A stretch of 39,132 bases of DNA, taken from the IMG/VR virus record IMGVR_UViG_3300046674_000493, positions 1-39,132 of that record; one strand, given 5' to 3'. The notes beneath the pieces were generated by a model. The model searched no databases, was not told the origin of the DNA, and was given only the letters and a program-made list of their open reading frames with translations. The stretch comes from a virus. Numbering within the stretch: the first letter of the stretch is position 1; each line of letters starts with the position of its first letter. Positions 1-27,621 of this stretch are shown here, piece after piece. A program made the translations under genes and the position numbers.

Positions 1-127
1 GTCGCCCTGATCCAGGGCGGCACCGAGGCCAACAAAGTCCTGCGGACCATGGTCGAGTGGGTGACCAAGCTGGTCAACGCCTACACCGACCTGCCGAGTT
101 GGGCCCAGACCTCGGCCGTGGCGATCC
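1..127. repeat. Terminal overlap, identical to 39006..39132
   Basis: Base-by-base identity of the first and last 127 nt of the window. Confidence 0.97.
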
Positions 128-1857: not shown

Positions 1858-1870
1858 GAGGAGGCCGACC

Positions 1871-2743: not shown

Positions 2744-2752
2744 GGACCCACC

Positions 2753-3799: not shown

Positions 3800-4881
3800 T
3801 GGCCCCGGTCGAACTCGCCTGGCTCGCCTGCGACCTGCGCACCGGGGCCGTCGCCGAGGAACTGCCCACCCTGCGCCCCAGCCAGGCCCTGTCACGGCGC
3901 CTCGGCGCGGTCACCGCGTTCACCGGCGACCTGCACCTCGCCCGCGCGCCGCGCGAGTGGGAGGCGGCGACCGACCCCGGCCGGACCATGCTCGTGGGCG
4001 TCGACACCACCACCGGCGACCCGGTCTGGTCCGGCCTCGTCCTCAACCGCGCCGGCGGGTCCGGTGCCCAGGTGCAACTCGCGGCGGCGACGCCCGAGGT
4101 GTGGCTCGACCGCCGCTACACCGGCACCTACAGCGCCACGGCCACCGACCAGGCGACCATCATGGCCAACATCGCCGGCCCTGCACTCGCCTCCGGCCCC
4201 CCGATCGTCATGGCGGCCACCCCCACCGGCGTCCTCGACGACTACAGCATCGACGACGCCGCCGACCGGACCATCCTGTCTGTGCTGGAGGAGATCAGCG
4301 ACCAGCAGGGCGCCCCCGAGTGGACGATCGACACCCGGTGGGCCGACGCCTCGCACACCCGCATCGAGCTGGTCCTGCGGATCCAGGCCACCATCGGCGT
4401 GCAGAGCACCACGCCCGACGCGGTGTTCGACCTTCCCGGCGCCGTCGCCGAGTACACGCTCACCGAGTCGTACGAACGCGGCCGCGGCGCCACCTCGGTA
4501 ACCGCGCGGGGGGACCGGGCAGACGGCGTCCGCGCCACCAGCACCCCCCACACCGACACGGCCCTGCTGGCCGCGGGCTGGGGCCTGTGGGAATACCGCT
4601 GGACACCCGCCCAGGGCATCACCTCCACCGACCAGCTGGAGTCCCACGCCGCCGAAGCCCTCGCCCTCATGGGCACGGGCAGCCGGGCCTGGTCCCTCAA
4701 CGCGGTCGCCTCGCGCGCACCCCGCGTCGGCAGCGCCTGGGGCCTGGGCGACAGCGTGCGCCTGGCCGTCGCCACCTCCCCCCGGCACCCCGCCGGCGTC
4801 AACGTCGTCGCCCGCGCCTACGCCTGGACCCTCGACCCGGCCGCCGACCGAATCTCCCCGATCCTCCTGGAGGACGCATGA
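3799..4881 (+). CDS. Minor tail protein
   Basis: ATGA stop/start overlap with the previous gene at 3797-3801, so the track start 3769 is probably too far upstream. N-terminus MAPVELAWLACDLRTG; position in the tail module. Confidence 0.55.
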   Translation: MAPVELAWLACDLRTGAVAEELPTLRPSQALSRRLGAVTAFTGDLHLARAPREWEAATDPGRTMLVGVDTTTGDPVWSGLVLNRAGGSGAQVQLAAATPEVWLDRRYTGTYSATATDQATIMANIAGPALASGPPIVMAATPTGVLDDYSIDDAADRTILSVLEEISDQQGAPEWTIDTRWADASHTRIELVLRIQATIGVQSTTPDAVFDLPGAVAEYTLTESYERGRGATSVTARGDRADGVRATSTPHTDTALLAAGWGLWEYRWTPAQGITSTDQLESHAAEALALMGTGSRAWSLNAVASRAPRVGSAWGLGDSVRLAVATSPRHPAGVNVVARAYAWTLDPAADRISPILLEDA

Positions 4882-5336
4882 CCACCCGCAACAACCAGCT
4901 GCCCAAAGACGCGTCCTGGCTGGCCCGCAAGGTGCTCGAGGTCATCGACGACATCACCCACCTGCGCGCGCACACCCCGGACATGGCCGCCGCGGACGCC
5001 CTGCTCGCACCGGCGGACACCGACATCACCCGGTGGCCGCAGACCACGGCCAGCGTCTTCACCACCGTCGCCCGCTGCTACAACGTCGCCTGGAAGCCGC
5101 GGCTTCGGCTTCTCGTGGCGACGACCACCTCGGGCGGCAGCACCGGCACCGTCCGCGTTTCCATCAACGGCACCGTCTGGGCCACCGGCAGCGCGGGGGC
5201 GGCACTCGACATCACCGCGGCCCTGCCCGCGGGCGTCAGCATCGGCGCCCAGTACCAGATCACCGTGGAGGCCGTGCGCACGTCCGGCGCCGGCTCCGTC
5301 TATGCCCAGGTCCAGCTGATCCGCGCCACCGACTGA
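4878..5336 (+). CDS. Hypothetical protein (tail module)
   Basis: ATGA overlap at 4878-4881. Only the last 152 codons of track ORF 3531..5336 have normal protein composition; the upstream part is Arg/Pro-rich out-of-frame read-through of the previous genes. Confidence 0.5.
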   Translation: MTTRNNQLPKDASWLARKVLEVIDDITHLRAHTPDMAAADALLAPADTDITRWPQTTASVFTTVARCYNVAWKPRLRLLVATTTSGGSTGTVRVSINGTVWATGSAGAALDITAALPAGVSIGAQYQITVEAVRTSGAGSVYAQVQLIRATD

Positions 5337-5346
5337 GGAGCAACAC

Positions 5347-5727
5347 GTGCACAAGGTCACCACCCTGCGTGCCGACAACCCGCAGGAACTCGCCGACCGG
5401 ATGGCTCCTATCGCCGTCGACGAGTACCGCGCCGGCCGCGCCGGCCAGCTGTCCGCACCCACGTCCGGGCAGACCCAGATCCCCGCCGAACTCTGGCTGC
5501 TGGCGGTCGCCCGCGTCAGCCCGGAACCCGGCGAATGGACCATCTACGCCCTCACCAGCGACGAGGACATCCCCGGCTGGCCCTACAACACCGGCTACTA
5601 CAACGGCGGCCTGCGGACGCCCCCGCAGTTCGCGCAGGCCCTCGCCGCAGCCGGCTACCAGGTCGCCCTCCGCCACTACAGCGGATTCACGGTGACCTGC
5701 ACCGACCAGGACGTCCCGCTCACCTGA
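5347..5727 (+). CDS. Hypothetical protein
   Basis: GTG start preceded by GAGGAG (5335-5340); GC3-biased ORF between the tail and lysis genes. Confidence 0.5.
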   Translation: MHKVTTLRADNPQELADRMAPIAVDEYRAGRAGQLSAPTSGQTQIPAELWLLAVARVSPEPGEWTIYALTSDEDIPGWPYNTGYYNGGLRTPPQFAQALAAAGYQVALRHYSGFTVTCTDQDVPLT

Positions 5728-5765
5728 TCCCCGGCCCGTCCGGGCCCATCACACCTGGAGGCCTG

Positions 5766-6800
5766 ATGGCCTGGTACCCCGGCGCCGAGCGCACGGAGCT
5801 CCAACCCGAATCCGACGGCCAGCCGGCCATCGTCCCCACCCAGCTCATCCTGCACAGCATCGCCGCCCCGTGGACGCCGCGCCGGATCTACGAGTACTGG
5901 CGCGACTCCACCAACCTGGAGTCGCACTTCGGCCTCGGGTTCGACGGCAGCCTCGGCCAGTACATCGGGACGCAGACCCGCGCGGACGCGAACATGCACG
6001 CCAACCTCCGGCCGGACGGCACCGGCGCGGTATCGGTCGAGTCGGCGTCCAACCTCCAGCACACCGACCCCTGGACGGACGCGCAGGTCGAGGCGCTGAT
6101 CCGGCTCGGCGTCTGGATGCACCAGCAGCACGGGATCCCGCTGCGGATCTGCCGCACCTGGGACGACCCCGGCTACGGCGTGCACCGGATGTTCCCGCAG
6201 TGGTCGGACGGCGGCACCGCCTGCCCCGGCGACGCGCGGGTCCGGCAGTTCCACGAGCTGGTGTTCCCGGGCATCGTCGCCCGCGCAACCGGGACCGCAG
6301 CTCCCGCTCCTACCCCCGCGCCGACCCCGGCGCCCGTCCAGGAGGACGACATGACCCCCGAGGAACTCCTCACCCACCGCGTGCCGCTCGCCACCCTGCC
6401 CGGAGGCTATGTGCCCTCCGTGGAGGAGCTCCTGAACGGCGCGAAGGCCGCGGACAGCCTGATCGAGGGGCTGCGCGCCGACCTGCCGGCCCTGCTCCTC
6501 AACGCGCCGATGCCGCAGGGCGCGGCCCTGTCCAACGGCTACGTGCCCACCGTCTGGGAGGCCATCAACGGCGCCCAGACCGCAGGCTCCCAGATCGCCG
6601 CGCTCACCGCGCAGATGACCGCACAGGGCGTCGCGAACGCGGCTGCCCTCACCGCGCTGTCCACCCTCGTCGCCCAGGTCCACGGCCTGGACGTCGCCGC
6701 GGTCGGGGCAACCGTGGAGGCCGCCGTCACGCGGGCCCTCGCCACGGGCACCGTCTCCGTCGACGTCCAGGTCCATAACACCACCACCCCGAAGGGCTGA
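5766..6800 (+). CDS. Endolysin, N-acetylmuramoyl-L-alanine amidase (Amidase_2/PGRP-type) with unassigned C-terminal repeat domain
   Basis: ATG 5766 after a CTGGAGG RBS. N-domain motifs LILHSIAAPW ... GVHRMF...TACPG fit Zn-amidase His/His/Cys ligand spacing. PAPTPAPTPAP linker, then an Ala-rich C-domain with an internal repeat. Immediately upstream of the holin. Confidence 0.85.
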   Translation: MAWYPGAERTELQPESDGQPAIVPTQLILHSIAAPWTPRRIYEYWRDSTNLESHFGLGFDGSLGQYIGTQTRADANMHANLRPDGTGAVSVESASNLQHTDPWTDAQVEALIRLGVWMHQQHGIPLRICRTWDDPGYGVHRMFPQWSDGGTACPGDARVRQFHELVFPGIVARATGTAAPAPTPAPTPAPVQEDDMTPEELLTHRVPLATLPGGYVPSVEELLNGAKAADSLIEGLRADLPALLLNAPMPQGAALSNGYVPTVWEAINGAQTAGSQIAALTAQMTAQGVANAAALTALSTLVAQVHGLDVAAVGATVEAAVTRALATGTVSVDVQVHNTTTPKG

Positions 6801-6805
6801 CCACC

Positions 6806-7027
6806 ATGTCCCGCTACCTGATTGACCTCGGCGAGCGCGTCGGCGCGACCGCCGCAGAGGCAGGCCTCGCCGTCGTCATCACCGAGGTCGGCAGCCTGCC
6901 CGCGTGGTGGGTGCCGCTGCTCATCCCGATCCTGGCCGCCGCGAAGAGCCTGTGCGCGGGCTTCGTCGGCCGCAAGGACACCGCCGCGCTGCTGCCCGCG
7001 GGCACCGACCCGGCCAGTCGCCCGTGA
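6806..7027 (+). CDS. Holin
   Basis: 73 aa directly after the endolysin. Hydrophobic segments AGLAVVITEVGSL and WWVPLLIPILAAAKSLCAGFV with a charged C-terminus. N-terminal LGERVGATAAEAG resembles r1t-type holins (from memory). Confidence 0.65.
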   Translation: MSRYLIDLGERVGATAAEAGLAVVITEVGSLPAWWVPLLIPILAAAKSLCAGFVGRKDTAALLPAGTDPASRP

Positions 7028-7311
7028 GCGGGCCGGAGACCGACCGGCCAGCGGTCTCCCTGGCCCTCGAACTGGCCGAGATCCGGAGGAGTGTGGACGT
7101 CGGATTCGCCCGTACGGACGGACAGCTCGCGCTCGTCCTCCAGCGCGTCGACCAGAGCGACGGTCAGGTCGCCGAGCTCAAGGACGAGGTGGCCAGCCTC
7201 CGGGGCGAGGTCGAGGAGCTCAAGCGGCGCCGCTTCCCCATCCCCATCGTCGGCGCCCTCACCGGCCTCGCCGCCCTGGCCGTCGCCCTCATCCCCCTGC
7301 TCACCCGCTGA
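7024..7311 (+). CDS. Lysis-cassette protein, coiled coil with C-terminal membrane anchor
   Basis: GTGA overlap with the holin stop (7024-7027). Heptad-like stretch VAELKDEVASLRGEVEELKRRR followed by FPIPIVGALTGLAALAVALIPLL. Confidence 0.5.
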   Translation: MSGPETDRPAVSLALELAEIRRSVDVGFARTDGQLALVLQRVDQSDGQVAELKDEVASLRGEVEELKRRRFPIPIVGALTGLAALAVALIPLLTR

Positions 7312-10249: not shown

Positions 10250-11839
10250 CTACTCCGTGACCACTTCCGGGTCGACGTACTTCGGCTGCCGACGAGCCCG
10301 CGGCACCATGCCGGCCGCGCGCTCCGCGACCTCCTTGTCCACCTCGGGCAGCAACGTGGTGTACGTGTCCGAGGCCAAGGTGATCGTGCTGTGCCGCAAC
10401 GTCTCCTTGATGGTGTGGAGGTCTCCGCCGCCGGCGTGGATGACCGTCGCGGCCTGGTGTCGTAGGTCCCGCAGGTTGATGGGCGGCAGGCCGGCCGCCT
10501 TCGAGATCCGGCGGAACGCGTCGCTCACCATCTCCGGGTGCAGCCACGTCCCGTCCTCCTGCGTGAAGACCTTCCCGGTGTCCGTCCAGGACGGCGCCTT
10601 CGTCGGGTCGCCGCCCTGGGCCAGGAACTCGGCCCGCGAGGCGAGTTGGGCGTCGCGCTCGGCCAGCTGCCGGACGCGGTGCTCACGCAGGACGGCAACG
10701 GTGACGCTGTCGAGCCCGATGGTCGCCGCGCTGCCGTCCGTCTTCGGCGCAGTCTCGATCGGGGTCCAGCCGTCCTGAACGATCTCCGTGGCGACGGTGA
10801 GCTCGGCCTGGTCGAGGTCGACGTTCAGCCAGTCCTGGCCGACGCCTTCGCCACGGCGCAGGCCGCGGAACGCGATCAGGTGGAAGAACGCGTAGAGGCG
10901 GTCGTCCTCGGCGGCGTCAAGGAACTCGCCGAGCTGGGGCAGGGTCCACACCATGACCGCGGACGGCTTCTCGCCGGTCCGCCGCCACCGCTCGACGTGC
11001 TGGGCGGTCCACAGCATCGCCTTGGGGCGCCGGCCGGAGTCCATCTCCAGGTGCTCGGCCGGGTTGAAGGTGATGAGCTGGCGGGCGATGGCGGAGTTGA
11101 GCGCGGCCCGGATGGTGGAGCGGATCCGCTGGCGGGTGGCCGGCCCAGTGATACGCCGGAACGGCTTCATCTCGGCGAGCACGGCGCGTTCGGCCGCGAT
11201 CCGCTGCTTCGTCTCGGCGCTGGGTACTCCGGGCTTGCCGACGCGGGTGCGGGCGACCTGCTCGCGGCGGGCCTGGTTCTCCGCGGCGATGACCTCGTTG
11301 GCGTCGGCGATGGCGTCGAACATCTCGACGAGGTGGCCGACGTTGAGGCGGTCCAGGCGCAGATGCCCGATGCGGGGCTTGAGGTGTACGCGAGTGTGGG
11401 ACTCGTAGCCGTTGGTGGTCGTCTTGCGGGTCTTCTTGGAGGCGAGCCAGGTGTCGAGCCAGTCCCCGACGGTCATCTTGCCTTCGAGGGGGATGCCGAC
11501 TCCGAGGCGGCGTTGGACCTCGATGATGTCGGGGATCGGGGAGCGGTTCTTGGCGACGTCGACGAGCAGGGCGGCGACTCGTTGTTCGGCGTCGTCGTCG
11601 CCCTTGGCGAGGTCGAGAATCGCGCGGACCTTGTCGAGTTCGGCCTGGGCCTTGGCGACGGTGTCGAAGCCGGTGCGGCGGAAGGTACGCCGCTTGCCGT
11701 CGCGGTCGGCGGGGAGTTCTTGGCGGAACGCCGGCGCTCCGTGATTCTTCCTAGCCAAGGTGGGACAGGCCGAGCCGAGGAGCTTACCGTCCTCGCCCCG
11801 GCATTCGCACCGCTTGTAGACCCCGCCACCGCGCCTCAT
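10250..11839 (-). CDS. int: Tyrosine integrase
   Basis: 529 aa. Catalytic-domain motifs FRGLRRGE, LRDLRHQAAT and LRHSTITLASDTYTT (R..HxxR..Y). Actinophage-type N-terminus MRRGGGVYKRCECRG. Adjacent to the tRNA-derived att core. Confidence 0.95.
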   Translation of the reverse strand: MRRGGGVYKRCECRGEDGKLLGSACPTLARKNHGAPAFRQELPADRDGKRRTFRRTGFDTVAKAQAELDKVRAILDLAKGDDDAEQRVAALLVDVAKNRSPIPDIIEVQRRLGVGIPLEGKMTVGDWLDTWLASKKTRKTTTNGYESHTRVHLKPRIGHLRLDRLNVGHLVEMFDAIADANEVIAAENQARREQVARTRVGKPGVPSAETKQRIAAERAVLAEMKPFRRITGPATRQRIRSTIRAALNSAIARQLITFNPAEHLEMDSGRRPKAMLWTAQHVERWRRTGEKPSAVMVWTLPQLGEFLDAAEDDRLYAFFHLIAFRGLRRGEGVGQDWLNVDLDQAELTVATEIVQDGWTPIETAPKTDGSAATIGLDSVTVAVLREHRVRQLAERDAQLASRAEFLAQGGDPTKAPSWTDTGKVFTQEDGTWLHPEMVSDAFRRISKAAGLPPINLRDLRHQAATVIHAGGGDLHTIKETLRHSTITLASDTYTTLLPEVDKEVAERAAGMVPRARRQPKYVDPEVVTE

Positions 11840-12697: not shown

Positions 12698-13000
12698 GTG
12701 ACAGCACAACGCGAGCGCCCTGCCCGATCGATGAGCAGAGCCGAGCTGCTCTCTTTGCCTGCAAGCGTCGACATCGTGACAGCCGGGAGGGCCTTCGGGC
12801 TCGGCAGGACGACCGCCTACCAGCTCGCTCGTACGGGCAGCTTTCCCTGCAAGGTTCTGCGCACGGGAAAGGCCTACCGGGCCATCACCGCCGACTTGCT
12901 CCGGGTCCTCCTGATCAGCCCGGATAACGAGAACGCCGCCGCGGGTGCAACCGCGGCGGCGTCTGACGAGACACCCAGCTCCACCAGCGCTGACCAGTAG
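12698..13000 (+). CDS. xis: Excisionase-like / MerR-type HTH DNA-binding protein
   Basis: Text LLSLPASVDIVTAGRAFGLGRTTAYQLARTGSFPCKVLRTGKAYR is typical of excisionase-family HTH. Divergent from repressor-int. An alternative ATG lies at 12731. Confidence 0.6.
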   Translation: MTAQRERPARSMSRAELLSLPASVDIVTAGRAFGLGRTTAYQLARTGSFPCKVLRTGKAYRAITADLLRVLLISPDNENAAAGATAAASDETPSSTSADQ

Positions 13001-14854: not shown

Positions 14855-15703
14855 GTGACCGCAGACGTCGTTCTCGACCACCTCTACCGAGTCACCCGGA
14901 CCATCCCCCGGGGGAGCGACTCCCAGAAGTCCGGGCGCTGCCCGGCGCACGAGGACCGCAACGCCTCGCTCTCGATCCGGCTGCTGCCGGACAAGACCCT
15001 CCTGAAGTGCCACGCCATGTGCTCGCTGGACGCCATCCTGGCGGCCGCCGACCTCACCGAGGCCGACCTGTTTAACCAGCCCCTCCCGCAGAGCGAGCGC
15101 CGCGGGTCCGACGACCAGTGGATGCCGTGCACCCGCGAGGGGCATCACCGAGTCGCCGAGTATCTCTACACCGATGAGCACGGCACGGTGGAGTACGGCG
15201 TCTGCCGCTGCGACCGCAAGTGCTTCCGACAGTGGCGAGTCGATCCAACCACCAAGTCGGGCCGCCGCTGGAAGCTGACCGACGAGTCGGGACAACTGCT
15301 CGTCCAGCCGCGGCCCTATCGGCTGCCGGCCATCCTGGTCGCCATCGCCGCCGAGGCCGTCATCTGGATCTGCGAGGGTGAGAAGGACGTCGAGGCCTTG
15401 GTCGCGCGCGGCTTCGAGGCGACCTGCAACAGCGGGGGTGCCGGCAAGTGGAGTCCGGAACACGCCCGGCACCTTCGAGGCGCAGACGTCACGATCGTCG
15501 CCGACCGCGACCCGGCCGGCCGCAAGCACGCCGAGCTGGTCGTCGAGACCCTGCGCGGCCTGGCCCACTCCGTCTACGTGGTCCAGGCCCGGCACGGCAA
15601 GGACGCCTTCGACCACTTCGCCGGAGGCGGCACGTCCGCCGACTTCCTGCCGGTCTGGGCTCCGATCCCGTACCCGGGCGACCCCTCGGGAGCCGCCTCG
15701 TGA
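14855..15703 (+). CDS. DNA primase (CHC2-like zinc finger + Toprim domain)
   Basis: Zn-finger text CPAHEDRNASLSI...KCHAMC. Y-x-Y-x-D-x-x-G motif EYLYTDEHGTVEYGVCR..KCFRQW. Toprim text ICEGEKDVEAL...TIVADRDPAG. Confidence 0.85.
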   Translation: MTADVVLDHLYRVTRTIPRGSDSQKSGRCPAHEDRNASLSIRLLPDKTLLKCHAMCSLDAILAAADLTEADLFNQPLPQSERRGSDDQWMPCTREGHHRVAEYLYTDEHGTVEYGVCRCDRKCFRQWRVDPTTKSGRRWKLTDESGQLLVQPRPYRLPAILVAIAAEAVIWICEGEKDVEALVARGFEATCNSGGAGKWSPEHARHLRGADVTIVADRDPAGRKHAELVVETLRGLAHSVYVVQARHGKDAFDHFAGGGTSADFLPVWAPIPYPGDPSGAAS

Positions 15704-17265
15704 GCGCCGAAGCGCAGTGGGCGCAGGACGTGAAGGCCCGGACGTGGGACAGCGGAGTGTATCCCGAAGATGCAGAGGGCTGGGACGAGCCGGTTCCGCT
15801 GGCTCCTCCTCCCCCGCTGCCGCTGGATCCGGCACGCCTGCGTGGCATCGGCGTGATGGCCGAGGCCGTCGCCAGGAGCCTGCAAGTCCCGGTCGACCTG
15901 CCGGCATGGCTCGGGATGGCCGTCGCTTCCACGGCGATCGGCGGCCGCCGGACCGTCACCCCCAAGGACGACTGGGTGGAGCCCGTCACGCTGTACACGA
16001 TGCCGGTGGCCGCCCCCGGCGAGATGAAGTCACCAGCCCTGTCACTGATGGCCAAGCCTGTTTTCGACGAGCAGAAGCGCCGGCGGGACGAGGACAAGCA
16101 CAGCGTCGCCCGCGACCAGCAGGACCGACGCATCGCCGAAGCATGCATCTCGGATGCCGAGTCCAAGGTGATCAAGGCCTCCGACGCCGAGAAGCGGAAG
16201 TCAGCTCGAACGAACCTCGACATGGCCCGTGACGAGCTCGAAGCCCTCGGCGCGCCGAAGGTGTTCACCCAGCTGATCGCCGACGACACGACGCCGGAGG
16301 CCGCTGTGGACGTGATCGCCGAACAGGGCGAGCGCCTAGCCGTCCTCTCGACGGAGTCCTCCTTCCTGGGGAACGTAGGAGGCCGGTACAGCAAGTCCGC
16401 CAACCCCGAGATCGTGCTGAAGGCCTGGAACCACGAGCCTCACTCCGTGAACCGGAAGACGGGCAAGACGCTCATCCTGGAGCGCCCGAACCTCTCCCTC
16501 GGCCTGGCCGTCCAACCCGGGTTCCTCACGGGCATGGGCGAGACCGGCGACGTGTTCGAAGCTCGCGGGCTGATGGCCCGGTTCATCTTCTCCATGCCCA
16601 CCAGCCGTGTCGGCGAGCGGGTGTACGACACCGCAGCAATCCCGGCCGACGTCCGGAACGCCTACACGGATGCGGTGCTGCGGATGATGACGGTCATCTG
16701 GGATGACGAGGAGAACCGGGAGATGCAGCTCGACGAGAAGGCCAAGGAGTCCTTCAAGTCGTTCTGGGAGGAGCTGGAGCCCCGGCACAAGGCGCACGGC
16801 GATCTGGCCTCGGTCGAGGGGTGGGCGAAGAAGCTGCCCGGCCAGGTGCTGCGCATCGCGGCGGTCCTCACCTTGTTCGAGGCACCGGACTGTCTGACCG
16901 TGAGCGGCGAGATCATGGACGACGCCATCAGCCTGGTGCCTTACATGATTGACCATGCCCGCCGAGTCGCTGATCTCATGTCAGCCGAGCGGCAGTCGAA
17001 GCTGGGACCCGCGCGGGCCGTTCTGGACTGGCTCCGCCGCACGGAAACGCGAGGTCGATTCGCCGCCGGCGATGTGGAGAAGGGCGTCCGAGGCCAGCAG
17101 TGGTGCACCTCCGTCGAGGACGTGGACTCGGCGATCGCACTCCTACTGAGGTCGGACTGGCTTCGGTGCATCGATCCGCCGGAGCGCGAGCCGGGTACGC
17201 GTGGCCGGCCGCCCAAGCCGCGCTTCGTGGCGCACCCGGCCGTGTTCATCCCTCCTCCGCGCTGA
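15700..17265 (+). CDS. DUF3987-like replication protein (primase-associated, helicase-position)
   Basis: GTGA overlap with the primase stop. 521 aa with text resembling YfjI/DUF3987 proteins that follow primases on integrative elements (from memory). No classical Walker A motif seen. Confidence 0.65.
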   Translation: MSAEAQWAQDVKARTWDSGVYPEDAEGWDEPVPLAPPPPLPLDPARLRGIGVMAEAVARSLQVPVDLPAWLGMAVASTAIGGRRTVTPKDDWVEPVTLYTMPVAAPGEMKSPALSLMAKPVFDEQKRRRDEDKHSVARDQQDRRIAEACISDAESKVIKASDAEKRKSARTNLDMARDELEALGAPKVFTQLIADDTTPEAAVDVIAEQGERLAVLSTESSFLGNVGGRYSKSANPEIVLKAWNHEPHSVNRKTGKTLILERPNLSLGLAVQPGFLTGMGETGDVFEARGLMARFIFSMPTSRVGERVYDTAAIPADVRNAYTDAVLRMMTVIWDDEENREMQLDEKAKESFKSFWEELEPRHKAHGDLASVEGWAKKLPGQVLRIAAVLTLFEAPDCLTVSGEIMDDAISLVPYMIDHARRVADLMSAERQSKLGPARAVLDWLRRTETRGRFAAGDVEKGVRGQQWCTSVEDVDSAIALLLRSDWLRCIDPPEREPGTRGRPPKPRFVAHPAVFIPPPR

Positions 17266-17380
17266 TTTTCTCCATTAATTCCATGCCGCAGGGGTCTCGC
17301 GACTTATCTCCAGGAGTCCCCGTAAGTCCATTTTTTAACTAAATATAACTCTCTGCTACTGAGCAGGTAACTCAGAGTCG
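17266..17380. promoter_or_regulatory. AT-rich intergenic region (candidate origin and/or promoter)
   Basis: The most A/T-rich stretch of the window (CCATTTTTTAACTAAATATAACTCTC). It carries small hairpins CTGCT-ACTG-AGCAG and CTGAG-CAGGTAA-CTCAG and lies directly downstream of the replication genes. Confidence 0.35.
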
Positions 17381-17491
17381 ATGACCCGACGACCTGTGCC
17401 AGCCTCCCCGCTTCGTGGGCCATGGAGAAAAGGGAGAAAAGCCAGTACCCGTCGCCAACCCCCCGCCGACTCGACCGCGAAGGAGAAGATC

Positions 17492-19239: not shown

Positions 19240-19878
19240 GTGCGCCATCTTGCCATGCCCACGAACACCCCGGCCCTCGGCCCGGACCAGCAGTTCGAGG
19301 TGATCTACCGCGACCACTCCCGGCAGATCACCACCCACATCGCGGCGAACCTCTACCGCACCGACCGCCACCTCGCCGAGGACCTCACCGCCGAGACGTT
19401 CATCCGCCTCTGGCGCAGCCTCACCGCCGGCATTCAGGTTGAGCACCCCCGCGCGCTGCTCAACACCATCGCCGGCCGGGCCATCGCCGACCACTTCCGC
19501 CGCGCCAGCAGCCGCGAGGCCGTCACCGACTTCACCGTCGGCAACCACACCGAGGTCGCCAGCGGCGCCGCGTACGTCCCGCACCTCTCCCTGCTGCTGG
19601 CCGAGGTCGAGCAGGCCGAGCAGCACCTCACCGAGGCCTGCGACGCCTACAAGGCCCTCACCCAGCGGTATGCCTCCGCCTGCGGCCTCCTCGCGCTGGC
19701 AACGCCCGAGCAGCACGCCCGAGCGGTCATCCGCCGCGACCGCGCCGTCCTGCTCCGCGAGGCCGCGCTCGACGAGTTCGCTGCTGCCGCGCTCGCCGCC
19801 GCCCGGGCCCGAGCCGCCTGGAACGCGGGCGCCGATACGGCCACCGCTGGCCGCGCCGAGCTGAAGGCAGCGGCCTGA
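19240..19878 (+). CDS. Sigma-70 family region-2-only protein (ECF-like N-domain, Ala-rich helical C-terminus)
   Basis: GTG after AAGGAG. FEVIYRDHSRQI...DRHLAEDLTAETFIRLWRSL...ALLNTIAGRAIADHFRR matches sigma region 2.1-2.4 patterns. No region-4 HTH is recognisable. Confidence 0.65.
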   Translation: MRHLAMPTNTPALGPDQQFEVIYRDHSRQITTHIAANLYRTDRHLAEDLTAETFIRLWRSLTAGIQVEHPRALLNTIAGRAIADHFRRASSREAVTDFTVGNHTEVASGAAYVPHLSLLLAEVEQAEQHLTEACDAYKALTQRYASACGLLALATPEQHARAVIRRDRAVLLREAALDEFAAAALAAARARAAWNAGADTATAGRAELKAAA

Positions 19879-21116: not shown

Positions 21117-22190
21117 ATGAGCCTGCTCATGCGCAACGTCACGCGCACCCGCACTGTCCCCTTCGCCCCGTACCCCGGCGCCCCCGTCGAGCACTTCGAC
21201 GAGGAGTACATCGTCACCGTCCCCCGCGACTGGGACCGAGCCGTCCTCGTCGGCGTCGCGGTCGGAACCGGCCTCCTCCTCACCCTCGCCGTCAGCTGGT
21301 CCACCGCCAGCATCGGCGCCCTGCTCGCGCTCAGCGGAGTGATGGCCGTCATCGCGTACGGCGTCGCCGCCGTCTTCGACGCCGCATGGATCATCTGCAT
21401 GGCCCTGGAGTGGCTCGCCCGCTACGACCCCCGCAAGGCCGTCCTGCCGCGCCGCGCAGGCTACGCAGCCCTCGGCATCTCCATGGCCTCCATCGCCACC
21501 GAGGCCGTCATCATCACGGGCGGGTGGAAGGGAATCGCCGTCGGGCTCATCGGCTCCGCCGTCTCCCTCATCGCCAAGGGGATCTGGACGCTCGCCATCC
21601 GGCACACGGCCAAGCCGCTGAGCCCGATCGAGCAGCAGTATGTGGCCCGGCGACAGGCCGCCGCCGGCGCCGAGCTCGCCATGGCCGGCATCGAGCGTCA
21701 GCTGGAGCGCTCCCGCTCGCACCTCACCGCCTACCGCGAGGCCTACGCCCGGCCCGCCGTCGTGGAGGCGCCCAAGGACATCGACCGGGCAGCCGACCAC
21801 GCCCGCAGTCTGCTGCCCGGCGCCACTGATGACGAGATCACCGCCCAGCTCACCGACGCCGGGCTGGTCATGTGGCCGGTCATTCCGCCGGTCACATCGC
21901 ACCTGCGGGATGACCACCGATCTGACCACTCGGATGACCACAGTCCCGACCGCACCCCGGCCACCGTCTCGGTCGGATTCCAGCGCCGCGAGCCGGTCAC
22001 CCCGCCGGTCACCCCACCCCCCGGCCAGATGACCGGCGCCGAACTCCTGGCTGCCGCACGGCGCCTTGACCGCGAGGCCCGCAAAGGGAAGCCGTCCATC
22101 CCGGTCACCATTCAGACCCTCCAGGACGAGCTCGGCCTCTCCCGCCGCGACGCCCGGGACCTGCGCCGCAACATCGTCGGCGAGGAGTAG
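21117..22190 (+). CDS. Polytopic membrane protein with C-terminal HTH-like tail (DUF2637/Spd-like, unverified)
   Basis: ATG 21117. About five hydrophobic segments (e.g. AVLVGVAVGTGLLLTLAVSW, IGALLALSGVMAVIAYGVAAVF, IAVGLIGSAVSLIAKGIWTLAI), a helical middle part, and a C-terminal TIQTLQDELGLSRRDARDLRR. Confidence 0.65.
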   Translation: MSLLMRNVTRTRTVPFAPYPGAPVEHFDEEYIVTVPRDWDRAVLVGVAVGTGLLLTLAVSWSTASIGALLALSGVMAVIAYGVAAVFDAAWIICMALEWLARYDPRKAVLPRRAGYAALGISMASIATEAVIITGGWKGIAVGLIGSAVSLIAKGIWTLAIRHTAKPLSPIEQQYVARRQAAAGAELAMAGIERQLERSRSHLTAYREAYARPAVVEAPKDIDRAADHARSLLPGATDDEITAQLTDAGLVMWPVIPPVTSHLRDDHRSDHSDDHSPDRTPATVSVGFQRREPVTPPVTPPPGQMTGAELLAAARRLDREARKGKPSIPVTIQTLQDELGLSRRDARDLRRNIVGEE

Positions 22191-22193
22191 GCC

Positions 22194-22340
22194 GTGCTCG
22201 CCCTGCTGCTCTTCGCGCTCCCCGCCGCCATGGTCGCCGCCGGCGCCGGCCTCCTGCCGCGCCGCCCCCTCCTCGCACTCCTCCAGGCGACCCTCTGCCT
22301 CTGGGCCGCCACCCTTCTCATCATCATCACCTGGAGCTGA
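22194..22340 (+). CDS. Small membrane protein (48 aa, not in ORF track)
   Basis: GTG after GAGGAG. Translation VLALLLFALPAAMVAAGAGLL...LCLWAATLLIIITWS. Strong GC3 bias. Confidence 0.45.
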   Translation: MLALLLFALPAAMVAAGAGLLPRRPLLALLQATLCLWAATLLIIITWS

Positions 22341-22345
22341 CCGTC

Positions 22346-22507
22346 ATGAGCGTCCTGTCCAAGCTCATCGGCACCACCGTCAAGACCACCACCGGCAGCC
22401 GGACCCCGCGAGAGCGCGCCCGCCGCGCCGCCGAGATCCGCCGCATCGACAAGGGCACCGCCAACTGGCTCCGCGCCGGCGGCTGGAACCCCCGGAAGGA
22501 CCGCTGA
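22346..22507 (+). CDS. Small basic protein (53 aa, not in ORF track)
   Basis: ATG after GGAG. Translation MSVLSKLIGTTVKTTTGSRTPRERARRAAEIRRIDKGTANWLRAGGWNPRKDR. GC3 bias. Confidence 0.4.
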   Translation: MSVLSKLIGTTVKTTTGSRTPRERARRAAEIRRIDKGTANWLRAGGWNPRKDR

Positions 22508-22509
22508 CC

Positions 22510-22797
22510 ATGGCCCTCAACCTCGATCAGCTCCGACCCAGCTACAACCTCTCCGCCCTCGGGGCCAGCATCGCCCCCGCCATCTGGTGGGGCCACACCC
22601 TCACCGCGTCGACCACCTCGGGCCCCCTCGCCCCCCTCGGCCTCACCCTCGCCGCCCTGCTCGCCACCGGCGCCGCCGACCTCAAGGTCGGCCTGTGGCC
22701 CACCCGGGCCCTGCTCCTCACCCCCATCACCGCCCTGCTCGTCAGCACGCCCGCCCTGCACGCCGTCCTCAACGTCACCACCGGAGCCGCCCTGTGA
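22510..22797 (+). CDS. Membrane protein
   Basis: ATG 3 nt after the previous stop; 95 aa with about three hydrophobic segments. Confidence 0.5.
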   Translation: MALNLDQLRPSYNLSALGASIAPAIWWGHTLTASTTSGPLAPLGLTLAALLATGAADLKVGLWPTRALLLTPITALLVSTPALHAVLNVTTGAAL

Positions 22798-23354
22798 GCA
22801 CCACCACCGTCACCCTCGGCGGCGCGGCCGTCGGCCTCGTGCTCCACATCCGCGAGTTCGGCCCCGGCCTCTGGGCCATCGCCATGAAGAAGGCCGGCAA
22901 GGGAGGCCCGCCCAAGGGTGACGGCGCCGATGCCGACACCAAGAGCCGGTTCGACATCAGGGCCCACACGCCCTACCTGCTGGGCGACGGCATCGGCATG
23001 CTCGCCATCGCCGTCCCCGGAGGATTCATCGGCACCGTCGCCGGCCGGATCCTCGGCATCAGCAACAGCCTCGGCGACAGGGTGCTCTCGGCCGGGGCCG
23101 GCAGCCCCACCGTCGCCGCCACCCGGGCCGCTGCCCACACGATGGACAGCTACGGCAGCCTGGTCGTCCTGCTCCTGGTCGCCACCGTCTTCGTGCTGCG
23201 CAAGTCGATGTCGAAGCCGCAGCGCAAGCAGCTGATCACCGGGATCTGGTCCGGCTCCACGATCGGCCTGTCCGCCGGCGCGGCCGGCCTCACCGCCGCC
23301 GTCCTCATCCCCGTCGCCCAGCAGCTCGGCCACGCCATCGGCGGCCAGCTGTGA
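22794..23354 (+). CDS. Membrane protein
   Basis: GTGA overlap; 186 aa; several hydrophobic segments (GAAVGLVLHI, GIGMLAIAVPGGFIGTVAG, LVVLLLVATVFVL, IGLSAGAAGLTAAVLIPVA). Confidence 0.55.
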   Translation: MSTTTVTLGGAAVGLVLHIREFGPGLWAIAMKKAGKGGPPKGDGADADTKSRFDIRAHTPYLLGDGIGMLAIAVPGGFIGTVAGRILGISNSLGDRVLSAGAGSPTVAATRAAAHTMDSYGSLVVLLLVATVFVLRKSMSKPQRKQLITGIWSGSTIGLSAGAAGLTAAVLIPVAQQLGHAIGGQL

Positions 23355-23911
23355 GCACCGTCCAGGGCAGAGCCGCCACCCGCCTGTACAGCGGCTCTGC
23401 CCTGGTCGCCCAGCGGATCGGCGCCTGGTTCGCCCCCGAGGAGCGGCCCGTCGCCGCGACCATCCGGTGCGGAGGCGCCCTGTGGGCAGGTGCGCACTTC
23501 GGGCCCGGGCTCCTCGACCACGGGCCGCTGCTGGCCGCGGCCAGCGTGTGCTGGTGCTGGGCAGCGTGGCGGGCCAAACCGATCGAGGACAAGTCGGAGC
23601 AGGACGGCGAGGCCGAGAGCCCGCAGCACACCGTCGAGGAGATCCGCACCGGCGTCCACCAGCTCCTCCACGCGGCCGTCGCCGGCCGCAACGGCGTCCA
23701 CCTCTCCGAGCTGCTCGACACCCTCCAGCAGGCCGGGCTCCTCGGCGCCGAGGTCACCCTCCCTGAGCTGCGCCGCGCACTGGACCGCTGGGGCATCCCC
23801 ACCCGCGACTCCCTCAAGGTCGCCGGCCTCAACCGCGCCGGCGTCCACCGCGACGACCTCCCGCCCCTTCCCGAACCCCTCCCCCAACCGGTCCTGGCCG
23901 ACGCCGGGTAG
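23351..23911 (+). CDS. Membrane protein with C-terminal winged-helix-like domain
   Basis: GTGA overlap. N-terminal hydrophobic and Trp/Cys-rich segments (LLAAASVCWCWAAW). C-terminal text VHLSELLDTLQQAGLLGAEVTLPELRRALDRWGIPT. Confidence 0.55.
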   Translation: MSTVQGRAATRLYSGSALVAQRIGAWFAPEERPVAATIRCGGALWAGAHFGPGLLDHGPLLAAASVCWCWAAWRAKPIEDKSEQDGEAESPQHTVEEIRTGVHQLLHAAVAGRNGVHLSELLDTLQQAGLLGAEVTLPELRRALDRWGIPTRDSLKVAGLNRAGVHRDDLPPLPEPLPQPVLADAG

Positions 23912-23912
23912 A

Positions 23913-23991
23913 GGTAGTTCCCGCAGGTCAGACCAGAACTACCCGCCCAACTACCCGACCGACTACGCGCCCCGACTACCTCACGACTACC
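23913..23991. repeat. Iteron array: one inverted plus five direct copies of RACTACC
   Basis: GGTAGTT at 23913-23919 (inverted copy). ACTAC cores start at 23938, 23950, 23962, 23975 and 23986, with spacing 12, 12, 13 and 11 nt. Non-coding, immediately after the stop at 23911. Confidence 0.6.
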
Positions 23992-24024
23992 GTGCCCGTC
24001 CCGGGATCGCCCGGGACGGGCACG
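23991..24024. terminator. Perfect 15-bp GC-rich hairpin
   Basis: CGTGCCCGTCCCGGG-ATCG-CCCGGGACGGGCACG. Confidence 0.6.
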
Positions 24025-24030
24025 CCGCTG

Positions 24031-24057
24031 TCCACAGCCCCATCCACAGCTGTGGAT
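24031..24057. promoter_or_regulatory. Operator-like 16-bp perfect palindrome plus extra half-site
   Basis: ATCCACAGCTGTGGAT at 24042-24057 with an upstream half-site TCCACAGC at 24031-24038. Lies about 31 nt upstream of the small HTH gene. Confidence 0.5.
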
Positions 24058-24088
24058 CACGTCGGCAGCCGGTGGCATCATCGGGTGC

Positions 24089-24256
24089 ATGCGCATCGTT
24101 GACACCGCCGCCGCCGAACTGGCCACCGGGGTCCGGGCCGGGACCCTGCGCCAGTGGCTGCGCCGCCGGCGCCTCACCGCGCACGGCCACGACTACTACG
24201 GGCGGGCCCTGGTCGACCTGGACGAGATCGCCGCGCTCAAGGCCCGCGCGAAGTAG
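24089..24256 (+). CDS. Small MerR/excisionase-family HTH protein (55 aa, not in ORF track)
   Basis: Translation MRIVDTAAAELATGVRAGTLRQWLRRRRLTAHGHDYYGRALVDLDEIAALKARAK. Strong GC3 bias. Stop TAG 24254-24256. Confidence 0.55.
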   Translation: MRIVDTAAAELATGVRAGTLRQWLRRRRLTAHGHDYYGRALVDLDEIAALKARAK

Positions 24257-24337
24257 GCGCTTGCCAAGATCCGCGAGCCTTGTAACACTGAACGCGGTAG
24301 CGCATGCCCAGAGGCAGGCGACCACAGACCACCGAAA

Positions 24338-24365
24338 GCCCCGCAGCCAGCACCTGGCGCGGGGC
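24338..24365. terminator. Hairpin after the small HTH gene
   Basis: Stem GCCCCGC(A)GCCAG / CTGGCGCGGGGC (12 bp with one bulged A) and a 3-nt loop. Confidence 0.5.
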
Positions 24366-24438
24366 CTTCGTCGTGAGGCATCGTCACAACTCGGACAAGG
24401 CACCATCGCTCTGGCGGCCGCACAGTCAGAGTTCGCCC

Positions 24439-26847: not shown

Positions 26848-27006
26848 CCCCCAACTCGGTGGGCACCAGGACCGCCGGGGAGGGACCTCGCTGTGTGTAC
26901 GGGTCTGGAGTTCCAGAATCGAGCGTCGAGTGACGCTGTGTGACCCCAGCCCGGCCGCAACGGCCGGGCGCTGACGTGCCGCAACGGCACCCCCGGAGGT
27001 GATCAC
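26848..27006. promoter_or_regulatory. Candidate cos / terminase-recognition region
   Basis: Non-coding gap directly upstream of terminase. Direct repeats CGCTGTGTG at 26889 and 26934. Twin hairpins share the loop context CCG-CAA-CGG (26949-26969 and 26976-26990). There is a locally lower-GC patch. Confidence 0.3.
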
Positions 27007-27621
27007 ATGGGAGGCATGGGCCCGGCGCCGAAGCCGACGTCCGAGCGGCGCCGACGCAACGTCACGGCCGCCACGACCAGGCTGCCCGCCGGCGGCCGTA
27101 CCGGCGACGCACCGCGCTGGCCACTGCTGGCCGACATCGTCATGGTCGAGCAGCGCGACTCCGCGCGGCGCCTGGCCGACGAGCTTGAACTCCAGCTCCT
27201 GGAGCCCGACCTGACCGGCCGCGCCCGTTCGTCCGCACAGAAGAAGCACGACGCCGCGAACAGCTCGGCCAACATCCTCGACCGCCAGCTCGAAGCGCAG
27301 GCCGAGGTCGAGGCCGAACTGTGGACCGAGCTGTGGGCCACCCCGCAGGCCGCTGCCTGGGAGCGCCTCGGCTGGACCCGCGAGGTCGCCCAGTACGTCC
27401 GCTGGAAGGTGAAGGCGGAGGGCGGCGACCTGGACGCCTCGAAGGAGGCCCGCCAGCTCGCCGACCGGCTCGGTCTCAACCCGCTGGCGATGCTGCGGCT
27501 GCGCTGGGAAGTTGCCGAGGACGAGGTCGGCGAACAGCGCCAGCAGCGAACGGCCGCACGACGGCCGGCGAGTGCCCAGCGCCGGCTGAAGGTGGTTGAC
27601 CCCGGTGTGGCGGGGGCCTGA
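27007..27621 (+). CDS. Terminase small subunit (P27-like)
   Basis: ATG after GGAGGT. N-terminal GPAPKPTSERRRRN and WTELWATPQAAAWERLGW motifs are typical of the P27-family small subunit. Directly precedes TerL. Confidence 0.8.
   Translation: MGGMGPAPKPTSERRRRNVTAATTRLPAGGRTGDAPRWPLLADIVMVEQRDSARRLADELELQLLEPDLTGRARSSAQKKHDAANSSANILDRQLEAQAEVEAELWTELWATPQAAAWERLGWTREVAQYVRWKVKAEGGDLDASKEARQLADRLGLNPLAMLRLRWEVAEDEVGEQRQQRTAARRPASAQRRLKVVDPGVAGA

Follow-up and report, generated by a model that had tools for sequence, protein, structure and literature searches.

A phased repeat array beside a winged-helix gene at the middle-to-late gene junction of a Streptomyces-type temperate phage

In the plasmids pWTY27 and pSVH1, the direct and inverted repeats of the clt locus start within the 3' end of a gene whose product is anchored in the membrane and carries a winged helix at its C-terminus (PMC3583192). 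Plasmid clt motifs are 7-9 bp long, with TGACACC in pWTY27, CCGCACA[C/G][C/G] in pJV1 and an 8-bp motif in pSVH1 (PMC3583192). In SaPI/PICI origins, e.g. that of EcCICFT073, short repeat sets flank a non-repeat centre and lie 3' of a DNA-binding-protein gene (PMC6092414). BldC binds direct repeats cooperatively, and these repeats are contiguous AT-rich 9-mers (PMC5859096). Late activators of the RinA type are located just before terS (PMC3753634), and AlpA acts via a promoter element and a downstream terminator (PMC7969949, PMC9371919). The consensus sequences of the DnaA box are listed in PMC4285127.

Here we describe a gap between two gene groups of a viral genome. The window, i.e. the whole stretch of DNA analysed, is 39,132 nucleotides long (IMG/VR record IMGVR_UViG_3300046674_000493, positions 1 to 39,132), and its source genome is a complete temperate phage of the Streptomyces type. 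The gap at 23912-24088 measures 177 nt by direct reading and with the repeat finder, and has a GC content of 0.68 as a whole and 0.62 in the repeat array. Upstream of it lies a six-gene membrane cluster, with small membrane proteins among the neighbours, and downstream lie the HNH, terminase and head genes. The region is at the boundary between middle and late genes, and an early-to-late switch was among the roles that the preliminary description had considered. In relatives the neighbouring genes follow one another in the same order, and the array is kept where the neighbouring protein is 43-70% identical.

That description had presented the gap and the small gene behind it as one hub of cis-acting elements. 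All of the listed elements were found at their positions, far beyond chance. The hub is not a single unit, however, since in relatives an ORF parts the array from the hairpin, the palindrome and the HTH gene, or the HTH gene is missing altogether, and the three modules are kept separately. Our full explanation, to which we give an even chance of being right, is that the gap is the junction of a middle operon (the six-gene membrane cluster) and the late region and holds three independent modules. The first would be the array, acting as a repeat docking site for the winged-helix protein encoded just upstream. The second would be a terminator-like 15-bp hairpin, and the third the operator and promoter of a tiny regulator, ahead of the packaging genes.

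The repeat array and its 10-bp core

The plus strand of 23937-23991 carries five direct RACTAC(C/G) repeats, whose period is 11-13 nt, as seen by reading the sequence, with the repeat finder and by simulation. Successive RACTACS copies are 12, 12, 13 and 11 nt apart and lie at 23937-43, 23949-55, 23961-67, 23974-80 and 23985-91. These five and one inverted copy had been reported before, and the reading and the repeat finder agreed on them. Half of the heptamer matches of the whole 39-kb genome (6 of 12) are packed into 80 nt; in 300 first-order Markov simulations the largest heptamer cluster was 2.

The left arm holds two inverted GGTAG copies on the minus strand (23907-23919), supported by the sequence and by arm covariation. 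The first, at 23907-11, shares bases with the stop codon (TAG) of the winged-helix gene (23351-23911), so that the array begins in the last codons of that gene; this is an extra copy that the preliminary description had missed. The second, GGTAGTT at 23913-19, is complementary to the first direct copy. The sixth arm position covaries with its partner in 11/11 distinct arm variants, and covariation is weak beyond it (7/11 and 3/11). Arm pairing was counted by a script, and the inverted arms are out of register in the MAFFT alignment.

Between the inverted and the direct repeats lies a 10-bp non-repeat core, CGCAGGTCAG (23922-23931). The phase of the repeats, whose conservation had been proposed as a check, is kept in relatives: the first CTACC stands at +17 from the start of the core, and in other loci most spacings fall within 10-13 nt, 12 being the commonest. 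The array element recurs in about 50 actinophage contigs. When 47 loci were chosen by the protein motif alone, 35 of them carried the core with at most one mismatch 47-79 nt past the HRDDL codons, compared to 6.6% of control windows. The core is in plus orientation in 12 of these 35 loci and in minus orientation in 23, and it flips between the same flanking genes. In long-tailed members of the family, the array and the core persist inside the ORF. The position inside ORFs and the flipping of the core point to a constraint at the DNA level. The core is also conserved across the specificity classes described below. For the array and core, neither inspection nor scanning gave a consistent match to a sigma-70 promoter or to one of the ECF-sigma type (GGAAC ... 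CGTC). A pattern scan of bacterial genome contigs yielded chance matches alone among the matches listed and is uninformative on the bacterial distribution.

Between 23912 and 23990, C is abundant and G scarce (0.43 vs 0.19), and pairing of the inverted arms would give an 8-bp stem (-17.3 kcal/mol, z = -3.4), which would suit an RNA-level element such as a nut-like stem-loop or a Rho-loading site. A cos/pac packaging site would be another reading of this kind, and the fold of the 55-aa protein encoded nearby also resembles the DNA-binding domains of small terminases. However, the core is reversed relative to transcription in the 23 minus-oriented loci, the downstream repeats in L192 are oppositely oriented, and no match was found in Rfam. 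Moreover, phage Kromp has its left physical end at a point that aligns to about 26882, within the gap ahead of terS, together with conserved twin hairpins. This alignment suggests that cos maps near 26.88 kb, so that the hub would be 2.9 kb upstream of it and not at a genome end. We regard an RNA-level or packaging function of the array as extremely improbable.

The winged-helix protein and its pairing with the array

The gene directly upstream (23351-23911, plus strand, GC3 0.94) encodes a 186-aa winged-helix protein, which was characterised by an AlphaFold model and a 29-homologue alignment. A helical hairpin of moderate hydrophobicity at its N-terminus is followed by an acidic linker and then by the winged-helix domain at the C-terminus. 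The C-domain is predicted with a pLDDT above 94 and the topology H-b-H-H-b-b, and it ends in a G(V/I)HRDDL wing motif that is invariant in the 29-homologue alignment. The structural neighbours of the winged-helix domain are generic (E above 0.3). Nearly all of the 130 family representatives are 180-340 aa long and have the domain at the C-terminus. Since the N-terminal hydrophobicity is modest (1.16 and 0.75, Kyte-Doolittle), membrane anchoring of the 186-aa protein is uncertain.

Loci of the family were found with an alignment-based scan; a search of the viral contigs with the single 186-aa protein gave no match, and neither did tblastn of the winged-helix protein against GenBank phages. The 357-aa membrane protein had partial matches only among GenBank phages, in SF3 and TurkishDelight. 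NCBIfam returned nothing, and neither did PADLOC for the cluster proteins.

Across about 56 loci the repeat motif tracks the type of the wing. The wing LKV(A/S)G goes with the repeat CTACC (31 loci), the wing RVRVRGLGVTVG with CTACA (9 loci), VRDP..QPVRAG with GTTGC (4 loci), QLYLDG with CTAG/CTAT (3 loci) and GVRTAxGNGPG with CCAAC (6 loci). A prediction made in advance also held, as P0008 and P0017 share the TGTTGC motif of L006, and P0012 shares the CTAG of L011. In a crude most-frequent-pentamer test, the 4-copy arrays of the minor classes were not separable from the GC-rich background, and in its place the motifs were tabulated class by class.

Given this change of the repeat motif with the type of the wing, the C-domain of the 23351 product is the likeliest binder of the array, and the array is most likely the cis binding site of this protein itself. 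Several copies of the probably membrane-associated protein would load beside the gene that encodes it and build up a nucleoprotein complex that acts in cis. The earlier proposal of a nucleoprotein assembly site was thus retained with the 23351 product as its most likely ligand, whereas nothing linked the 21117 product, which had also been named, to the site. Far from being confined to this phage, such an array pairs a DNA-binding domain throughout the family with a site that lies in the end of the gene encoding it. With at least five protein/motif specificity classes and a constant core that faces either way, this pairing offers tractable cognate pairs for studying winged-helix specificity.

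The preliminary description had also compared the region to clt loci and centromeres. In such a case, translocation or segregation of phage DNA, e.g. between hyphal compartments, would be the task of the winged-helix protein together with the membrane cluster, as it is that of TraB and Spd in Streptomyces plasmids. The comparison with clt stands as far as the layout is concerned. The array is arranged as in pWTY27 and pSVH1 (PMC3583192), with repeats overlapping the 3' end of the presumed binder's gene as in the clt/TraB/TraA systems of pSVH1, pWTY27, pIJ101 and pJV1, and this is true of other wing classes too. The array protein resembles TraB in its predicted C-terminal winged helix, and TraB has N-terminal membrane helices (PMC3583192), which are uncertain in the phage protein; the neighbouring genes encode small membrane proteins. 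In contrast to clt/TraB, there is no FtsK/SpoIIIE-like motor domain anywhere in the phage (no PF01580 match), the array motifs differ from the plasmid motifs (PMC3583192), and the phage has a conserved 10-bp core of variable orientation. The winged-helix proteins, at their 180-340 aa, contain no ATPase domain that we could find. Furthermore, the element is not a conjugative plasmid but a phage that integrates via the encoded tyrosine integrase. The centromere reading was weakened by the missing ATPases, because besides the FtsK type the phage has no ParA-type ATPase (no match to AAA_31 or CbiA, the families that the search covered). A clt- or centromere-like function of the array is unlikely.

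It is our guess that the array complex holds a section of the phage chromosome at the membrane complex. In its widest and rather unlikely form, the winged-helix protein, the array and the orientation-free core would be an undescribed cis-acting module of actinomycete phages. The protein would be made and put into the membrane beside its own gene, capture the array and pin the chromosome to the six-protein membrane complex. That complex, lacking a TraB-type motor, would move phage DNA or organise it, for example in a spread across hyphal cross-walls like that of plasmid Spd/clt or in membrane-attached replication or packaging. The pairing gives a handle on the uncharacterised six-gene membrane module of many Streptomyces-type phages and prophages.

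The first hairpin, the DnaA-like boxes and the origin question

The perfect 15-bp hairpin at 23991-24024 (plus strand), noted in the preliminary description, was confirmed. It is GC-rich, with a 4-nt loop and no U-tract, and folds with -35.7 kcal/mol (z = -5.9). Relatives have hairpins of differing sequence in the matching position, with some compensatory pairs, and a structure kept through sequence change fits a terminator at the end of an operon. Terminators without a U-tract have been reported in actinomycetes. The hairpin may end the transcript of the upstream membrane cluster or stabilise its 3' end. There is no T-run after this hairpin or the second one described below, and the scan found no canonical terminators. 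Similar hairpins occur within one and the same rightward unit, which together with the missing U-tracts suggests that the hairpins may stabilise RNA and not terminate transcription.

Three DnaA-box-like 9-mers follow at 24028-24059, namely CTGTCCACA (24028-36), CCATCCACA (24040-48) and, on the minus strand, TGATCCACA (24051-59). CCATCCACA and TGATCCACA together make up the 16-bp palindrome at 24042-57, which, like the half-site TCCACAGC at 24031, had been described exactly. The 9-mers match TTGTCCACA or TTATCCACA at 8/9, 7/9 and 6/9 positions, and relatives have perfect boxes (TTATCCACA in L005, TTGTCCACA twice in L008). The TCCACA trio was found in 4 loci only and co-occurs with the HTH gene in 4/4 of them; L192 has the HTH gene without the trio. 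A palindrome scan of viral contigs returned mostly unrelated contexts.

The HTH gene has an extended -10 element, TGG CATCAT (24073-24081, plus strand), 7 nt before the ATG, which implies a leaderless mRNA. It was read from the sequence, and its layout, TGGnATCAT-N5-7-ATG after the hairpin, is present in L003, L008, L006, L315, L098, L129 and L192, whichever gene comes next. A consensus promoter scan of the region called nothing. The trio would be an operator over the -35 position of this apparently leaderless promoter, with the 55-aa protein itself, host DnaA or both as its ligand.

If host DnaA and not the phage HTH protein bound the trio, the late regulator would be coupled to the replication state of the host, or DnaA would be titrated. 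In this respect it is of note that the boxes vary among relatives and yet stay within the DnaA-box consensus (CTGTCCACA, TTATCCACA and twice TTGTCCACA), and that unrelated high-GC viral contigs also show the direct-plus-head-to-head arrangement, there with full TTATCCACA boxes. On the other hand, about 0.5 boxes with an 8/9 match are expected by chance in 39 kb, as estimated from base composition, and DnaA boxes at one mismatch are not enriched in the genome (6 observed vs 3.7 expected). The joint presence of trio and HTH gene in all four loci fits autoregulation equally well. DnaA clusters at oriC, the dnaA promoter and plasmid or phage origins likewise hold 9-mers near TTGTCCACA/TTATCCACA, whereas here there are only three candidate boxes, placed over a promoter and with no unwinding element nearby. 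We rate binding by DnaA as possible but on the whole improbable; it would give host DnaA an input to the late switch of the phage.

The phased repeats (five direct and two inverted, with an 11-13 nt period) beside the three DnaA-box-like 9-mers would suit a second, iteron-type replication origin. The repeats would bind an initiator, the boxes would recruit host DnaA, and the hairpin or the palindrome would aid melting. With two repeat sets around a non-repeat centre, directly 3' of a DNA-binding-protein gene, the locus does have the layout of SaPI/PICI origins (PMC6092414). Unlike in those origins, however, the repeat sets here enclose the GC-rich core and no AT-rich centre, and the upstream protein is a 186-aa winged helix and not a helicase. 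The hub has no AT-rich stretch for unwinding, as its GC content is 0.62-0.68 compared to 0.54 at 17266-17491. Family profile scans found no Rep, helicase or ATPase signature in the 186-aa protein, which is a single winged helix, and hence there is no initiator next door. The array and the DnaA-like boxes are separable, the boxes being absent from most array-bearing loci, and arrays that fall within ORFs are kept as well. The genes for the primase and the helicase (14855-17265) have an origin-like site of their own right after the helicase gene, where two inverted iteron sets surround an AT-rich centre (17266-17440). From its sequence, the region at 17.27-17.44 kb is the better candidate for an origin, and the proposal of a second origin was given up as quite unlikely. 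Phased repeats beside DnaA-like boxes should therefore not be annotated as an origin by default.

The 55-aa HTH protein and the late genes

The small gene at 24089-24256 (plus strand, GC3 0.96) encodes a stand-alone 55-aa protein with a predicted MerR-type winged HTH of BldC-like fold, in line with the preliminary description, which had read this ORF of strong GC3 bias as an excisionase/MerR-type HTH. The profile matches were weak. Pfam HTH_17 was matched below the gathering threshold (E = 0.007, 17.1 bits vs a cut-off of 27), and a MerR-like PHROG at 1.6e-5. The AlphaFold model (pLDDT 93) has BldC (6AMK, 6AMA), NmlR, CarH, RacA, phage TerS DNA-binding domains and RdfS as its top Foldseek matches, with the best fit to BldC (TM 0.65-0.69, probability 1.0). 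Like BldC, the protein is without the coiled coil and the effector domain of MerR (PMC5859096). In contrast, identity to BldC is only about 22% and there are no AT-rich 9-bp repeats near the 55-aa gene; its candidate site, the palindrome and one direct half-site, is unlike BldC sites.

Since BldC is the top structural neighbour and the gene is only 100 nt from the array, the 55-aa protein, and not the winged-helix protein, might bind the direct repeats as a head-to-tail multimer. This is very unlikely, because arrays are present in many loci with no HTH homologue nearby and the array motif tracks the wing type of the winged-helix protein. In addition, the contiguous AT-rich 9-mers of BldC stand against the 5-7-mers of the array with their 12-bp period.

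Directly behind the HTH stop codon lies a conserved promoter (24261-24289, plus strand) with the -35 element TTGCCA, a 17-nt spacer and TG-n-AACACT. In 5/5 loci the late promoter behind the HTH gene keeps the blocks CTTG and TGTCACACT; a strict consensus scan did not call the promoter. The half-site is clear in the -35 region of the late promoter only in L008. A second hairpin follows at 24333-24370 (plus strand, arms 24333-44 and 24359-70) as a candidate terminator or attenuator, based on the repeat finder, the fold and relatives. The preliminary description had mentioned it as well, and it is real and conserved, with compensatory changes in 4/21 predicted pairs across 5 loci. In L192, the HNH gene comes directly after it. 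The order of regulator gene, promoter, terminator-like hairpin and regulated genes was the same in 5/5 loci.

Behind the gene come the conserved promoter and the covarying hairpin, and beyond these the HNH and terminase genes, so that the 55-aa protein is probably a late-gene regulator. It would act on the promoter-plus-terminator unit directly behind its own gene, ahead of the HNH, terminase and head genes. Its mode of action would be that of a late activator or of an antiterminator in the manner of AlpA or Q. As with the RinA/ArpU/LtrC activators and the AlpA/Q antiterminators, a small regulator gene is the last one before the packaging genes and is followed by a conserved promoter (PMC3753634; PMC7969949; PMC9371919). 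The terminator-like hairpin after the promoter, here known from sequence, adds to the likeness to AlpA. The 55-aa protein matched none of the RinA/ArpU/LtrC, Phage_AlpA and Q families in Pfam, PHROG and NCBIfam, and the HTH_17/MerR-like similarity was the only one obtained. A point against this role is that both the 55-aa gene and an HTH_17-like gene at 12731-13000 are possible excisionases. The second half of the locus nevertheless offers a testable model for how the packaging genes are switched on, built from a BldC-like regulator with a leaderless mRNA, the conserved promoter and a terminator-like hairpin that covaries.

Separable modules in the 177-nt gap

The IMG/VR virus record of 39,132 bp is complete, with terminal repeats from circular assembly. 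Genes were called by GC3 and then scanned against profile libraries. Judged by its sequence, the phage is a temperate siphophage of the Streptomyces type. Tail and lysis genes (1-7311) are followed by a tyrosine integrase on the minus strand (10250-11839), early genes (from 12039), primase and helicase (14855-17265), a protein with sigma region 2 only (19255-19878) and six small proteins, mostly membrane (21117-23911). Next come the gap under study (23912-24088, hereafter the hub), a 55-aa helix-turn-helix (HTH) gene (24089-24256), an HNH endonuclease (25115) and the small (27016) and large (27596) terminases. The 207-aa sigma-like product matched only ECF sigma region 2, in many NCBIfam models (lowest E 3e-9; scores far below cut-offs); region 4 was not found in it, and a search of the hub revealed no promoter motif matching it.

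All elements listed in the preliminary description were found in place by reading the sequence and with a repeat finder. Six of the 12 RACTACS heptamers of the genome lie within 80 nt, and the largest heptamer cluster in 300 Markov simulations was two. Two features had been overlooked: a second inverted GGTAG (23907-23911), which overlaps the TAG stop codon, and the non-repeat 10-mer CGCAGGTCAG (23922-23931, the core) between the inverted and direct copies.

We collected homologues of the upstream 186-aa protein (23351-23911, plus strand) and compared their contigs. The neighbouring gene order was constant: a membrane protein of ~270-370 aa, small membrane peptides, two proteins of ~185 aa, the gap, small genes, HNH and terminase. 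All hub elements are kept in loci L003 and L005. In L008, a 47-aa zinc-ribbon ORF separates the array from the group of hairpin, palindrome and HTH gene, while L009, L012 and many viral contigs carry unrelated small genes after the array and lack the HTH gene. The hub had been regarded as one unit; these contigs split it into three separable modules, so the array goes with the upstream gene and the palindrome with the HTH gene. The gap elements exist and are non-random, conserved and modular. In many relatives, among them L046, L081, L126, L107, L338 and L340, a small-protein gene directly follows the array; its product starts with the zinc-ribbon motif MPYEYRC..C and has a hydrophobic helix at its end. 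The window has no such gene at this position.

The repeat array co-varies with the wing of the upstream protein

The AlphaFold model of the 186-aa protein (mean pLDDT 85; C-domain >94) opens with three helices, continues through a disordered acidic linker and ends in a helix-strand-helix-helix-strand-strand domain with a winged-helix fold. Foldseek matched it to generic winged-helix domains only (PadR, ArgR, Fur, ORC, MCM8; E >0.3). We found no sequence relatives in the PDB and no family in Pfam, NCBIfam or PADLOC. An exhaustive HMMER search gave 130 cluster representatives, nearly all of 180-340 aa with the domain C-terminal, and none contained an ATPase. Since N-terminal hydrophobicity is modest in the window protein (1.16 and 0.75) and reaches 2.2 in distant homologues, membrane association is likely for the family and only plausible for the window protein. 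One distant relative from the representative search, P0093 (373 aa), has a winged-helix-like segment at the N-terminus together with T5orf172/MUG113 and FtsK-gamma domains, and was the only link found between this domain and an FtsK-type DNA-reading module.

The array is shared across the protein family. The repeat phase noted earlier held in relatives, where pattern scans and inspection revealed a fixed geometry with further copies every 11-13 nt. In array-bearing loci, GGTAG lies 8-9 nt before the core and the first CTACC 17-19 nt after the core start. To remove ascertainment bias, we chose 50 viral loci (47 distinct) by the protein wing motif G(V/I)HRDDL alone. Of the 47 distinct loci, 35 have the core, with at most one mismatch, 47-79 nt downstream of the wing codons; among control windows, only 105 of 1590 carry it. 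The core is forward in 12 of the 35 and backward in the other 23.

The repeat motif and the wing type co-vary. Wings of the LKV(A/S)G type go with CTACC (31 loci, 3-8 copies), RVRVRGLGVTVG with CTACA (9 loci), VRDP..QPVRAG or GVRTPDGVRAG with GTTGC/GCAAC (4 loci), QLYLDGRNRAG with CTAG/CTAT (3 loci) and GVRTAxGNGPG with CCAAC (6 loci). A forecast made from L006 and L011 before the data were seen, covering part of the wing-motif pairing only, held for three family representatives: TGTTGC repeats in P0008 and P0017, and CTAG repeats in P0012. We infer that the winged helix binds the repeats. One might guess that the resulting complex tethers DNA to a membrane complex.

In family members with a longer C-tail, the reading frame runs on through the array and core. 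Moreover, in L080 and L107 the core is in opposite orientation between the same flanking genes and repeat arms. Since the array is found inside ORFs and the core flips within the same flanks, the constraint on the array is on duplex DNA, not on RNA or coding sequence. The downstream repeats of L192 are also in inverted orientation. Within the innermost inverted pair, arm position 6 was complementary in 11 of 11 distinct variants, and the next two positions in 7/11 and then 3/11. Because complementarity drops after position 6, we define a symmetric unit of 6-7 bp and claim no hairpin function for the array arms.

The in-frame GTAG/CTAC array and core of long-tailed members (L351, L353, L357, L361, L366, L349 and L350) lie ~50-200 nt past the HRDDL codons and are translated into a low-complexity Ala/Thr/Val/Pro tail. 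Here the protein sequence seems to be set by the DNA site.

Hairpins, DnaA-like trio and the HTH gene

Hairpin 1 (23991-24024) folds with -35.7 kcal/mol (z = -5.9), and relatives have strong hairpins of differing sequence at the same place, downstream of the array or of the inserted small ORF. It has no U-tract and a canonical terminator scan was negative. With moderate confidence, we consider it an operon-end terminator or a 3'-end stabiliser. Both hairpin 1 and hairpin 2 (24333-24370) would terminate transcription.

The trio that follows (24028-24059) comprises the half-site CTGTCCACA and a palindrome with the halves CCATCCACA and, on the minus strand, TGATCCACA. The box bound by DnaA with high affinity is TTGTCCACA for Streptomyces and Mycobacterium, TTATCCACA for E. 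coli and Bacillus and TGATCCACA for Caulobacter (PMC4285127). Perfect boxes occur in two relatives, one TTATCCACA in L005 and two TTGTCCACA in L008; unrelated high-GC viral contigs carry full TTATCCACA boxes in a direct-plus-head-to-head arrangement like that of the trio. The 4 loci with the trio all have the HTH gene behind it; the HTH gene of L192 has no trio. The trio may be bound by host DnaA, by the HTH protein in autoregulation, or by both. Full DnaA-box clusters in such unrelated contigs (L144, L154, L155, L159/L173, L176, L190) consist of one or two direct TTATCCACAG and then a head-to-head pair.

TGG-CATCAT (24073-24081) stops 7 nt short of the ATG, and the trio covers its -35 position. 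The HTH mRNA is probably leaderless, since no Shine-Dalgarno sequence lies between this -10 element and the ATG. TGGnATCAT-N5-7-ATG follows the hairpin in L003, L008, L006, L315, L098, L129 and L192, whichever gene is first.

Sequence matches of the 55-aa protein were weak (HTH_17, 17.1 bits against a cut-off of 27; a MerR-like PHROG, 1.6e-5; the PADLOC methylation-associated defence model mad1, 3.5e-6). Its structural model is confident (pLDDT 93) and gives its fold: BldC was the best neighbour, followed by the DNA-binding domains of NmlR, CarH, MtaN and RacA, phage small-terminase DNA-binding domains and the RdfS excisionase. The protein might be an excisionase; a second weak HTH_17 gene, near the immunity region (12731-13000), is better placed for that role.

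Directly behind the HTH stop codon lies a conserved promoter (-35 TTGCCA, 24261-66; TG-n-AACACT, 24281-89), followed by a conserved GCATGCCC block and hairpin 2 (-30.7 kcal/mol, z = -4.2, within a 61-nt stretch). Across five loci, four of the 21 predicted pairs of this hairpin are changed on both sides; in L192, it is directly followed by the HNH gene. In Gram-positive phages, genes for late activators immediately precede terS (PMC3753634), and AlpA, once loaded at a promoter element, takes RNA polymerase through a terminator further downstream (PMC7969949, PMC9371919). By analogy with these systems, which the locus resembles in gene order and fold only, we infer that the HTH protein may control the late promoter.

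In the window (24304-24438) and its equivalents in L003, L005, L008 and L192, the GCATGCCC block gives an ATG (GTG in L192) a few bases past the predicted late-promoter start. From this codon, a short ORF (6-19 codons) runs to a stop in or just past hairpin 2; in the window, it continues in frame into an 87-aa gene. The ORF may serve as a leader peptide or attenuator, or its presence may be coincidental. In L003 (3734-4863), the closest relative, and in L004, a gene for an N6/N4 DNA methyltransferase lies behind the unit of HTH gene, promoter and hairpin. Because of this gene and the mad1 match, some HTH members may act like controller proteins.

ALTERNATIVES: RNA-element, transfer, origin and cos readings

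The hub is unlikely to be an RNA element: it has no Rfam match and its core orientation is not fixed. Searches of the phage found no ParA-type and no FtsK-type ATPase, which argues against the proposed centromere-like site. The likeness to clt/TraA of pWTY27 (PMC3583192) is in the layout; the FtsK-type ATPase is missing.

A second origin had also been suggested. The hub lacks both an AT-rich stretch and an adjacent initiator. A parallel in layout with PICI origins leaves this role a minor probability. A better layout is present at 17266-17440, right after the helicase gene, where an AT-rich centre (GC 0.54) is bordered by inverted sets of two repeats each, of the TTTTCTCCA type to its left and of the TGGAGAAAA type to its right, as in the SaPI/PICI origin (PMC6092414). 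This is probably the real origin of the phage.

The window has a match to the terminase region of Streptomyces phage Kromp, with base 1 of the Kromp record falling at ~26882. A physical end (cos) probably lies near this position, assuming that the Kromp record begins at its physical end. The hub would thus be ~2.9 kb inside the predicted right end and is unlikely to be cos; the cos-homologous region lies outside it. The gap before terS (26848-27015) aligns with the first 200 bases of Kromp, and this alignment contains a TGTACGGGTCTGG block and conserved twin GCCGCAACGGC-type hairpins before terS.
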